64,000 bases of DNA from Eledone cirrhosa (GCA_964016885.1 OZ024752.1:24242001-24306000); one strand, 5' to 3'. Positions 34,643-38,192 are shown, numbered from the stretch's first letter. The notes: generated by a model not told the origin, from the sequence alone. Numbers and translations: made by a program.

Positions 34643-36914
34643 GATTTTTTAGTAAGTAAGTTAATTTTATAATTTTCTTATTTTACGTCTCTCATATTAT
34701 TGTTCTGCAACCCCATGCATTGAACCACATTGTTAATAAGACAAAACCTATATATTTGCTAGCATTGATATGCATCTGTGTGTATATAAATGTTACTAGA
34801 TATAAATTCCTTATAATTATCTCCAATTCATTTGTCGAGCAATATATATATGTATATATATATATACATATGTGTGTGTGTGTGTACACGTGTGTGTGTG
34901 TGTGTGTGTGTGTGTGTGTGTATGTGTGTGTGTATGTGTATATATATATATTTAGTTATGTATCTTTATGTGTGTATATATATGTATATGTATGTATATA
35001 TATATGTACCCATTTGGAGGTAGGAGTACATATTCGTGTGTGTATGTATGTGTATATGTGTTTTTATATGTGTCTTTATATGTTTTTATGTATGTGGATG
35101 TATATGTACATGGGTGTGTGATTGATGGTGTGTGCCTATATATTCCTACATATGCCCGTGTGTGTGTGTACGTATATACGCACATATGTGTGTGTTGAAC
35201 AAAGGACTAATTTTGGGATGGACGTAGAAAAATTCTTCAGACAAAAATAATTGTTTACAAGCTTGGCAGGTGCGGTTTGTCTATGACCATTCTCGATACA
35301 AAGGAATACTAAAAGCTTTTTCCCCTGAATAAAGGAATTTTTCGAGAATGACCGGGGCAGGCCGCGCTTGCTACATTTCTCCCCACCCAACCCTACTCAC
35401 TGTCTCAACTCATTACTGCTATTAACATTTTTTCAACACACCAACACCCCTACACTTATTAAAGGGGGAGAAAAAACCCCCACCGCACCACAAACATGTT
35501 AAATCCTTATATATGGAACATCACACCACATACACATCAGTTTGACAAGCGCACCTCAGCCTGAAACGTCTTTCTAAAAACGAAACAATACCTCCTACGT
35601 TAACCAAGAACTCCTAAGACCTAACCAACAACCAACGACTCAATTTATAAAATTTAAAAAAAAAATTAAAAAAATTTTTTCTAATCCGGAAAAAAATTCT
35701 TTTTGGATTTTGTGAAGAAAATAAATTTGTTGAAAGCACAAGTGAAGCCATTTTTTTCTTCCCCCCTGTTTTAATATATATATAATATATATATATACAT
35801 ATATATATATATATATATATATATATACATATATATATATATATATATACATATATATATATATATATATATATATATACATATATATATATATACATAT
35901 ATATATATATACATATATATATATATATATATACATATATACATATATATACATATATATATATATATATATATATATATATATATATATATATATATAT
36001 ATAAAGGTTTACATATATATATATACATACATACATATACGTGTTTTGCAACGGGTCACTTTGTGGCTCAATGAAAAGTTAATAAATTAAATAATCAGAG
36101 CTATATATGATAAAACATGTCTATAGATTCACCAGATGAAATATATACCATTTCCTCTCCCAATTAGCATAATTAACTATATAAAAAATCGAATAGACCA
36201 GGCTATAAGAATAAGGCTTCTATGAAGAAATCTCCAACAAATAACCGAAACTAGCCCTTCGCGTCGGCCGCGACGGAATATTTATCGAATATTTCGACAG
36301 CGTAATCGCCCAGATACAGTCAATTAAACAAAATTAGGTGTAAAATAAACTAGGAGAAAATAGAATACATTTATTTACCTCTTTCCATGGTTTCGGCCGC
36401 ATTTTGAGATTTACAATAACTTTGGAACTCGAGCATCGGACTCACCTCCTGCATATATATATATGTATATATATGTATATATATATATATATGTGTGTAT
36501 ATATATATATGTATATATATATATACATGTATATATATATATATATATATATGTATATATATATATATGTATATATATATATATATATATATATATATAT
36601 ATATATATATATATATATATATATATATATATATATATATATATATATATATATATATATATATGTATATATATATAATATATTTAGAAACACACAGATA
36701 CATGCGGACACACACATATACATGAATGCATCCGCACCCAACCGTGAGTTAAGGGTGCCAACTTCACCGAAGTTGCTCAATGAATGACTGGGACAGACCA
36801 ATCCGGTTGAACTAGACTGAACCAGTATCAGAGTTAAAAATACATTATGAAGAGAGAAGAAACATTTAGATATAATTAGTAATAAAATGTATCATACCTA
36901 AACTGCTCCTAGAT

Positions 36915-37004
36915 TCCTCGACTACGTAGTTTCGTGGCATAAACAAAAACAATACATCATAAAGATATAGAGTCCTTGCGAGGTCTGCCGACTTATCAAG
37001 AGGA
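36915..37004 (-). ncRNA. Type-I hammerhead motif, U3-A8 variant
   Basis: Mirror of 37473-37562. Confidence 0.8.
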
Positions 37005-37472
37005 TACCTCATTTTACTAGTCTCAAGAACGCGTCTACACGACGTGAAAAAGAATCCCAAAAGGCGGAGGGGGAGATAGTCACGCGATATAACGGTCGAG
37101 AAACAGAGCTAAGCCTCTTATAACCCCGAAGAAAATACCACGGAGGCGGAGGGGGTATTTATATCGAAGCCGTAGAAGAGGTGGTGAAGGAGACGAGAAG
37201 TATGAGTAATAGAAGCTTTCCAGCAGTCCCCACACTTCAAAGATTGCTCGACCAGAGGGAGTTATTAACAATATATTTAGAAACACACAGATACATGCGG
37301 ACACACACATATACATGAATGCATCCGCACCCAACCGTGAGTTAAGGGTGCCAACTTCACCGATGTTGCTCTGTTTCTCGACCGTTATATCGCGTGACTA
37401 TCTCCCCCTCCGCGTTTTGGGATTCTTTCTCACGTCGTGTAGACGCGTTCTTGAGACTAGTAAAATGAGGTA

Positions 37473-37562
37473 TCCTCTTGATAAGTCGGCAGACCTCGCA
37501 AGGACTCTATATCTTTATGATGTATTGTTTTTGTTTATGCCACGAAACTACGTAGTCGAGGA
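37473..37562 (+). ncRNA. Type-I hammerhead motif, U3-A8 variant, long stem II
   Basis: UCCUC-UUGAUAA-GU(C)GGCA...UGCCAC-GAAA-CUACGUAG-UC/GAGGA, with palindromic stem III and a GUC triplet. Confidence 0.82.
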
Positions 37563-38009
37563 ATCTAGGAGCAGTTTAGGTATGATACATTTTATTACTA
37601 ATTATATCTAAATGTTTCTTCTCTCTTCATAATGTATTTTTAACTCTGATACTGGTTCAGTCTAGTTCAACCGGATTGGTCTGTCCCAGTCATTCATTGA
37701 GCAACTTCGGTGAAGTTGGCACCCTTAACTCACGGTTGGGTGCGGATGCATTCATGTATATGTGTGTGTCCGCATGTATCTGTGTGTTTCTAAATATATT
37801 ATATATATATACATATATATATATATATATATATATATATATATATATATATATATATATATATATATATATATATATATATATATATATATACATATAT
37901 ATATATATACATATATATATATATATATATATACATGTATATATATATATACATATATATATATACACACATATATATATATATATACATATATATACAT
38001 ATATATATA

Positions 38010-38192
38010 TGCAGGAGGTGAGTTTTATTGTAGTACAATAAAGCAATGCAGATATCGGATAAGAAGCACTCTACAGTTTGTAGGACTGGAGTATACATAA
38101 TATATAAGATCAAAAGATGGTTAAAAGAGTTCCATGTATTTTATAAAATACATGGAACTCTTTTAACCATCTTTTGATCTTATATATATTAT
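38010..38192. mobile_element. Truncated fold-back copy of the 48508-49100 family
   Basis: 38012-38144 matches 48509-48641, then folds back with the palindrome centre at 38143/38144. Confidence 0.8.

Follow-up and report, generated by a model that had tools for sequence, protein, structure and literature searches.

A copy of a non-coding repeat, element A, lies within 36440-38023 in a 64,000-nt stretch of the Eledone cirrhosa genome (the window; C12:24242001-24306000 of the 3.0-Gb assembly, with positions counted within it), and here not only the arms of the element but also the (TA)n tract and the start of the unrelated neighbor on its right recur in mirror image on its left. The most probable origin, to which we give about two chances in three, is an ordinary two-armed insertion of the Penelope (PLE) type, of a retrozyme-like repeat, whose left side was later overwritten by an intra-strand switch onto the right arm. 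This reading, which concerns one locus in one assembly and uses a paralogous locus (L207) in place of the ancestral allele, is based on the start-site rule followed by the family, on the structure of L207, and on the pattern of variants at positions A95, A372, and A387.

The mirror was found by local alignment of the left side with the reverse complement of the right side. As the original prediction described, it comprises the element, the interrupted TA tract, and the first 14 nt of the neighbor (B), and ends there: in the assembly sequence, 36440-37109 and 37368-38023 align over 656 columns, with two substitutions (at 37048 and 37063) and a single 14-nt gap within the longest pure TA run. 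Read from left to right, the alignment gives a copy of the first 14 nt of B (36440-36453, minus strand, the mirror of 38010-38023); a copied interrupted (TA)n tract of 223 nt (36454-36676, the mirror of 37801-38009); the left arm, A1-593 in cDNA sense (36677-37269, plus strand); a second pass through A positions 1-102 (37270-37371, plus strand); the right arm, A1-433 in cDNA sense on the minus strand (37368-37800), which would be the donor of the copy; and the native interrupted (TA)n tract of 209 nt (37801-38009) between A and B. The two TA tracts, which were also compared token by token, each have eight interruptions in the same order, with run lengths that are equal bar one (95 versus 81). 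They have 14 consecutive tokens of 17 in common, whereas the best of 260 other TA tracts (at least 100 nt long) reaches 5; the mirror is therefore not due to chance. From A1 to A371, and on through the TA tract and the 14 nt, there are no substitutions between copy and template, the one difference being the 14 nt of length in the longest TA run. Another TA tract, at 35774-36039, was ruled out as part of a longer mirror by eye and by self-alignment. Two features had been missed by the original prediction: a 258-nt spacer (37110-37367, plus strand by alignment; A434-593 plus A1-98) that prolongs the left arm, and a 4-nt microhomology at each of two junctions (37368-37371 and 36440-36443).

Element A consists of a 593-nt non-coding monomer (36677-37269), followed by A1-102 again and then by the reverse complement of A433-1. 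No non-repeat open reading frame (ORF) of at least 150 aa is present over A, and a 28-nt motif near the A start has 5,407 exact matches genome-wide; non-coding tandem monomers and high copy number are what is expected of a non-autonomous PLE-type element or non-LTR retrozyme. The copies of A also have the inverted second copy, the one-sided tail from two start sites, and the (TA)n target of a PLE-type insertion. Described PLE insertions target (TA)n and have partial tandems, inverted second arms, and tails on one side (PMC8557442, PMC3846280); the same features in families A, B, and C (the last lying to the left of A) suggest that a PLE enzyme has mobilized these families. The same window contains a PLE ORF fragment that has a GIY-YIG domain (E 5.8e-06). 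One PLE fragment, at 51194-54965, contains reverse transcriptase (RT) and GIY-YIG sequences with an ORF at 52687-54432 (minus strand); its inverted terminal repeats have their own CA/TA microsatellite, and an extension of ~35 nt on the right side only forms a classic PLE tail. Just to the right of the window, a two-armed autonomous PLE (L141:819-6461) has a frame of 602 aa with RT and GIY-YIG-like sequences, and its arms start ~80 nt apart, the same asymmetry as in A.

Within each arm, on the strand opposite to it, lies a type I hammerhead-like motif (36916-37003, minus strand, mirrored at 37474-37561, plus strand), recognized by eye and conserved in about 165 segments. Its parts are stem I, a UUGAUAA core variant, stem II with a long loop, GAAA, a palindromic stem III, and GUC. 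Natural U3-A8 hammerhead variants exist. In A, the C3 position is T in 165/165 segments and the G8 position is A in 165/166, which would represent a compensatory swap of the 3-8 pair, a pair treated in PMC11167929. The fold of the motif is unremarkable (z -1.38), and an Rfam search of 30000-45000 (E up to 1) returned 92 matches, every one of them under the gathering score and none a hammerhead; the miRNA matches in this region are hairpin and TA artefacts. Given this ordinary fold and the lack of an Rfam hammerhead match, the ribozyme of A stays putative. Like metazoan non-LTR retrozymes (PMC7229834, bioRxiv 10.64898/2026.07.22.740005), A combines non-coding tandem monomers with a type I hammerhead-like motif, is present in thousands of copies, and is proposed to depend on PLEs. 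Unlike them, it has a monomer of 593 nt rather than the 150-450 nt reported in these sources, and a variant core. Elsewhere in the window, the insertions at 33845-34815 and 31019-32386, which are two-armed, near-palindromic, and from related families (~73% alike), carry a CTGATGA...GAAA hammerhead-like motif and have unmirrored flanks.

To define the normal structure of an A insertion, we classified 87 A loci, namely the 30 best matches containing A1-593 (the mirrored locus included) and 57 clusters on C1, which are all those formed by the first 100 motif matches on C1 and constitute a position-ordered sample. In 41 loci there is a single orientation or no junction; the other 46 are head-to-head. 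In 40 of these 46, one arm starts at A1 and the other at A164 (1/164); five are truncated or cut by the edge of the locus, and the sole 1/1 locus is the mirrored one. Among the complete loci of the position-ordered sample, 24/24 are 1/164, for which the chance under independent starts is ~6e-5, and in the loci inspected the arm starts adjoin TA tracts. This rule is consistent with priming at both cut ends from two start sites. In work with a purified PLE protein, both strands were cut and extended, and synthesis began at two positions on the RNA of the element (PMC11167929). In 16 of the 40 1/164 loci (one of which, L093, has an internal deletion and is possibly misclassed) neither arm is contained within the other; thus these arms cannot be fold-back copies of each other, and both must have been templated by RNA. 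Family C follows the same two-start rule: among 19 other C loci, the opposite arm runs from C63 in eight, is otherwise truncated in three, and is lacking in eight.

The center of the mirrored locus is a head-to-head joint between A102 and A433 with a 4-nt microhomology (37368-37371). An exact search finds the identical joint at two further loci, L207 (C1:159583598-159586623) and L209 (C14:44360613-44363638), which are independent insertions. L207 has the order TA, A164-593, A1-102 / A433-1, TA, between flanks that are unrelated and unmirrored, and L209 has the order A1-102 / A433-164, that is, the same joint with the roles swapped, again with the flank unmirrored. Since the same center occurs at these unmirrored loci, it is an ordinary joint of two arms and not a fold-back point. 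Furthermore, since independent insertions have exactly the same A102/A433 joint, the joining of arms favors particular microhomologies. In family B, a parallel is seen at L057, which turns at the same point as the hairpin at 38093-38180. L207 has the structure that would be expected for the mirrored locus before the event, and can serve as a paralogous stand-in for it.

These comparisons bear directly on the mechanism that had been proposed at the outset, in which one cDNA, primed from the right flank, folds back at the center and is then copied along its own strand into the priming flank. Two parts of that interpretation hold: A looks Penelope-mobilised, and it is very likely that a strand was copied back on itself, starting in the right arm and ending in the right flank. 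The fold-back at the center does not hold, both because L207 and L209 have this junction without a mirrored flank and because a single right-primed cDNA predicts that the long, spacer-bearing arm is on the right, whereas it is on the left. The idea can be kept only in a modified and improbable form, in which a single right-primed cDNA (A1-593, A1-102) folds back centrally into the priming flank and the spacer is then inverted by recombination between the arms. Such a route would yield, in one step, the 1/1 starts, the A95 base shared by the arms, and the 4-nt match at the center. For PLE inverted repeats, self-priming is one proposed origin (PMC3846280), and L1 is reported to form hairpin fold-backs that contain inserted cDNA (PMC11702581). 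Yet it requires the extra flip of the spacer, as the long arm is on the copied side, and it requires that both later mutations fall in the innermost 62 of 433 nt. In addition, the same center arises at L207 and L209 without any fold-back, and 16 of 40 loci of the family cannot be fold-backs.

According to the two-armed insertion and switch that we prefer, both ends of a cut in (TA)n would have primed reverse transcription, giving one arm from A1 and the other from A164. Judging from L207, the initial order at the locus would have been C...TA, A164-593, A1-102 / A433-1, TA, B. The bottom strand, when extended leftward past A433, would become complementary to its own right arm, and within A164-371 it would pair with that arm. 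The interval in which the switch would have occurred thus corresponds to 36840-37047, as native second arms begin at A164 and the arms still differ at A372 and A387. Copying would then cover ~390-590 nt, running through what was left of A and the 209-nt TA tract to a point 14 nt into B; the strand would rejoin at the 4-nt microhomology inside C, with loss of the old left TA tract and the remainder of C. In the product, the inner parts of the arms would be the two original cDNAs, and the outer left part, from A1 to somewhere in A164-371, would be a DNA copy of the right arm. Homology between the arms would be available at the entry point, and a 4-nt microhomology is present at the return. One guess for why copying stopped 14 nt into B is the easy melting of the TA tract together with the 57% G+C content of the start of B. 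The end in C could also be the product of trimming at a later time; the copied length would then be a minimum. As for timing, we lean slightly toward the gap filling of an integration intermediate, while the right cDNA was still single-stranded; a later switch at a replication fork that met the young inverted repeat would give the same product and is somewhat less probable.

The variants that distinguish the arms are compatible with this order of events. Both arms of the mirrored locus have a base at A95 that is rare (4/160 segments), and the second pass (37270-37371) has the common one; at L207, this position is the same in the second pass as in the opposite arm. The arms differ only at A372 (left) and A387 (right), where each has a private base (1/159 and 1/158 segments, respectively). 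These two sites adjoin the spacer, and no arm difference is found in A1-371 or in the flank. The clustering of the differences has a probability of 0.02 over the arms and 0.009 when the flank is included, values obtained from two sites only and post hoc. At the usual arm-to-arm rate, the probability of zero differences in 371 nt is 0.08, and many ordinary loci also have none. Locus L005 has the rare A95 base in the same arrangement of first and second pass, and so this base could have been inherited from a source dimer. By itself, then, the variant pattern has modest statistical weight, and the case for a template switch rests mainly on the start-site rule and L207.

Two other origins can be weighed against the same observations. 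Sister-end fusion is very improbable: here the two replicated right ends of the break, each priming a cDNA at A1, would have fused head to head, and a second break 14 nt into B would have joined C. Although this accounts for the mirror and for two private cDNA errors, and is a route proposed for L1 fold-backs (PMC11702581), it violates the 1/164 rule that 40 of 41 complete loci obey. It also calls for another break no more than 14 nt from the tract, and its intermediate would be an unstable chromosome that would have to be rescued in the germ line. The use of a local RNA as the template is quite improbable. In this case, a read-through transcript (A, TA, B) would be reverse transcribed from a break in C, with the 4-nt microhomology serving as primer, and rejoined at A433. 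The observed polarity would then arise without a flip, and L1 insertions can contain RNA transcribed near the insertion site (PMC10191854). However, reverse transcription would have to be nearly error-free through 209 nt of a self-pairing UA repeat and would have to begin at a start site found in no other copy; moreover, the private A387 base of the supposed template is absent from the copy, and the structural match with L207 becomes a coincidence.

At its two outer ends the mirrored structure abuts other repeats. Neighbor B (38008-38187, plus strand) is a short two-armed insertion of a third repeat family, which ends in a perfect hairpin (38093-38180); B copies elsewhere begin with the same letters, beside TA tracts. 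Neighbor C (36040-36443, plus strand), which begins in a TA tract near 36000, is one arm of a high-copy, hammerhead-bearing repeat with a 651-nt monomer and is cut at C position 404. Each of the 19 other C copies that were fetched matches to position 402-405 and then runs on into other sequence; thus the C at the mirrored locus is a cut copy. The possibility that the 14 nt are a natural end of C was ruled out, as 21/21 motif matches in other C loci go on with other letters. What remains of the C hammerhead-like motif (36378-36443, minus strand; compared by eye with L032-L035) is stem II, GAAA, and stem III. The junction, which falls inside the first core box, takes away the CUGANGA box and one strand of stem I. 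The "broken hammerhead half" that had been noted here is thus correctly named, since the core present in other C copies has lost its first half. The return junction itself (36440-36443), as seen by sequence comparison, is the 4-nt microhomology common to C and to the copied end of B, and the 20-mer that spans C and B at this point has a single occurrence in the assembly.

A clean join of this kind is also relevant to an unlikely objection, that the structure is an artefact in which the right flank was pasted onto the left arm, either by a long read that was chimeric or folded back or by an error in the consensus across the inverted repeat. In favor of this, a single mirrored locus was found, and its flank copy is without substitution; in addition, ~0.55-0.6% of ONT genomic reads are reported to be fold-backs (PMC12870357). 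The same source, however, reports virtually no fold-backs in HiFi data. Furthermore, two private sites and 14 nt of TA distinguish the arms, the left end passes into a different element cleanly and at a microhomology, the center is a natural joint that is present at two other loci, and the locus is within a 50-Mb contig with unrelated sequence on either side. No second allele or haplotig of the mirrored locus is present in the assembly, in which queries with both outer flanks returned only other repeat families. In contigs from short reads of four public runs (three of them from one sample, possibly that of the assembly itself), compared over C, the family has a depth of thousands-fold.

Flank mirroring is rare, as none of the 45 other head-to-head A loci has it; in the position-ordered sample the count is 0/26. 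When TA runs are collapsed, the outward prefix shared by the two flanks is 37 tokens at the mirrored locus and at most 4 elsewhere, with the exception of 12 at L108, which is a GT run. A wider survey covered 120 sequences (983,682 nt), comprising 80 stretches of 10 kb, 32 B/C loci, and 8 overlapping pieces of the window; the filters required arms of at least 40 nt, an identity of at least 90%, a spacer of no more than 3 kb, and a distance of more than 150 nt from any edge. Of the 148 inverted-repeat rows that passed these filters, 31 have TA directly outside both arms: 3 are the mirrored locus, 6 belong to L129, L145, and L188, and the other 22 share at most 3 tokens. At L129 and L188 the microsatellites lie inside the arms of the element. 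L145 is a PLE with a long, microsatellite-rich end, and this end is found in direct orientation after other copies as well; L141, the two-armed autonomous PLE mentioned above, has unmirrored flanks. All four were rejected as second cases, and thus the search that had been suggested for further PLE palindromes with mirrored flanks returned none, either among the 45 loci or in the 0.98-Mb survey.

The original prediction also held that PLE insertion might in this way duplicate and expand microsatellites. This lacks support: flank mirroring is seen at 0/45 other head-to-head loci and at no other place in the 0.98-Mb survey, and the left TA tract was probably replaced rather than added; given this probable replacement, the event provides no route for microsatellite expansion. 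A PLE seen at L144-L146 has a terminal region of >2 kb of mixed CA/TA microsatellite with tandem and inverted copies. Elements of this type carry the microsatellite along and may weigh more in microsatellite spread than the event at the mirrored locus. A tandem array with a period of ~660 nt extends over 10 kb at L143-L144 (C12:24,329,700-24,339,900), with copies that are 91-95% alike. Within the window, a 9.5-kb array of ACC-rich units (20902-30410) has a period of 27 built on a 3-nt repeat and a strong strand skew. Translations judged by eye suggest three copies of a LINE-like RT fragment that are 94% alike (3071-5484, 45724-47995, and 61582-63744) and a separate putative LINE at 57520-60658 with endonuclease-like and RT-like frames.

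Comparable scars are known from other retroelements, and the mirrored locus is likely a real-looking but rare scar, with counterparts already on record among human L1 insertions. Among somatic L1 insertions, twin-priming inversion accounts for 29.5%, fold-back duplication of target DNA alone for 0.3%, and both together for 0.1% (PMC10191854). The short fold-backs are attributed to the synthesis of an extra 52-220 bp of DNA while the insertion is being resolved (Nam et al. 2023, PMC10191854). Like L1 twin priming with fold-back as presented there, the mirrored locus has a retro-insertion primed from both break ends and a short inverted copy of the flank, and is rare. Unlike in the L1 case, a non-coding PLE-type repeat was inserted, into (TA)n; the copy would be ~390-590 nt, of which 223 nt are flank, rather than 52-220 bp (PMC10191854); and the element's own two arms seem to have supplied 60-270 bp of homology for the switch, which appears to have overwritten part of one arm. 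L1-mediated fold-back rearrangements (PMC11702581) likewise have a fold-back junction with reverse-transcribed sequence and mirrored flanks; those described are large copy-number events that arise through hairpins or sister fusions, whereas the mirrored locus is local and closed within 1.6 kb.

The switch step also has a precedent, as local template switching that turns near-perfect into perfect inverted repeats is established (Walker et al. 2021, PMC7954356). As in a four-point template switch, the strand would go out, copy in reverse orientation, and come back, and the inverted repeat becomes longer and more perfect (PMC7954356). The four-point events described there involve tens to hundreds of nucleotides in host repeats, whereas at the mirrored locus the inverted repeat was made by the element. 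A resembles endonuclease-bearing PLEs (PMC8557442, PMC3846280, PMC11167929) in its partial tandems, inverted second copy, (TA)n target, and two starts of reverse transcription, and in both the extension, or "tail", is on one side only. Unlike those PLEs, which have tails of 30-40 nt, A has no coding capacity for protein and a tail of about 160 nt. The tail on both sides and the mirrored flank that distinguish the mirrored locus are undescribed in the consulted portions of these three papers. A literature search conducted mostly on the titles and the beginnings of abstracts of largely open-access papers found no report of mirrored host flank at a PLE insertion; the supplements of PMC10191854 and PMC8557442 may hold comparable structures.

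As a single scar, the mirrored locus changes little and carries no implication of function; its value is as a worked case. The 1/164 rule together with L207 allows the structure before the event and the switch interval to be inferred, and argues against self-priming as the source of the inverted arms of family A. It is doubtful, at present, that such copying is a recurring side reaction of gap filling at two-armed PLE-type insertions, in which fresh arms prime the copying of one flank, microsatellite included, over the other, with deletion of the neighbor; the reaction would possibly be run by the element's own reverse transcriptase acting on DNA. Extrapolation from the motif count and the classified sample gives ~1,400 head-to-head copies of family A, and similar families are numerous. 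If the side reaction does recur, mirrored loci would be a countable record of second-strand synthesis, a step not yet validated for PLEs, and further read-supported mirrored loci, if found, would constrain the second-strand and joining steps of PLE integration.
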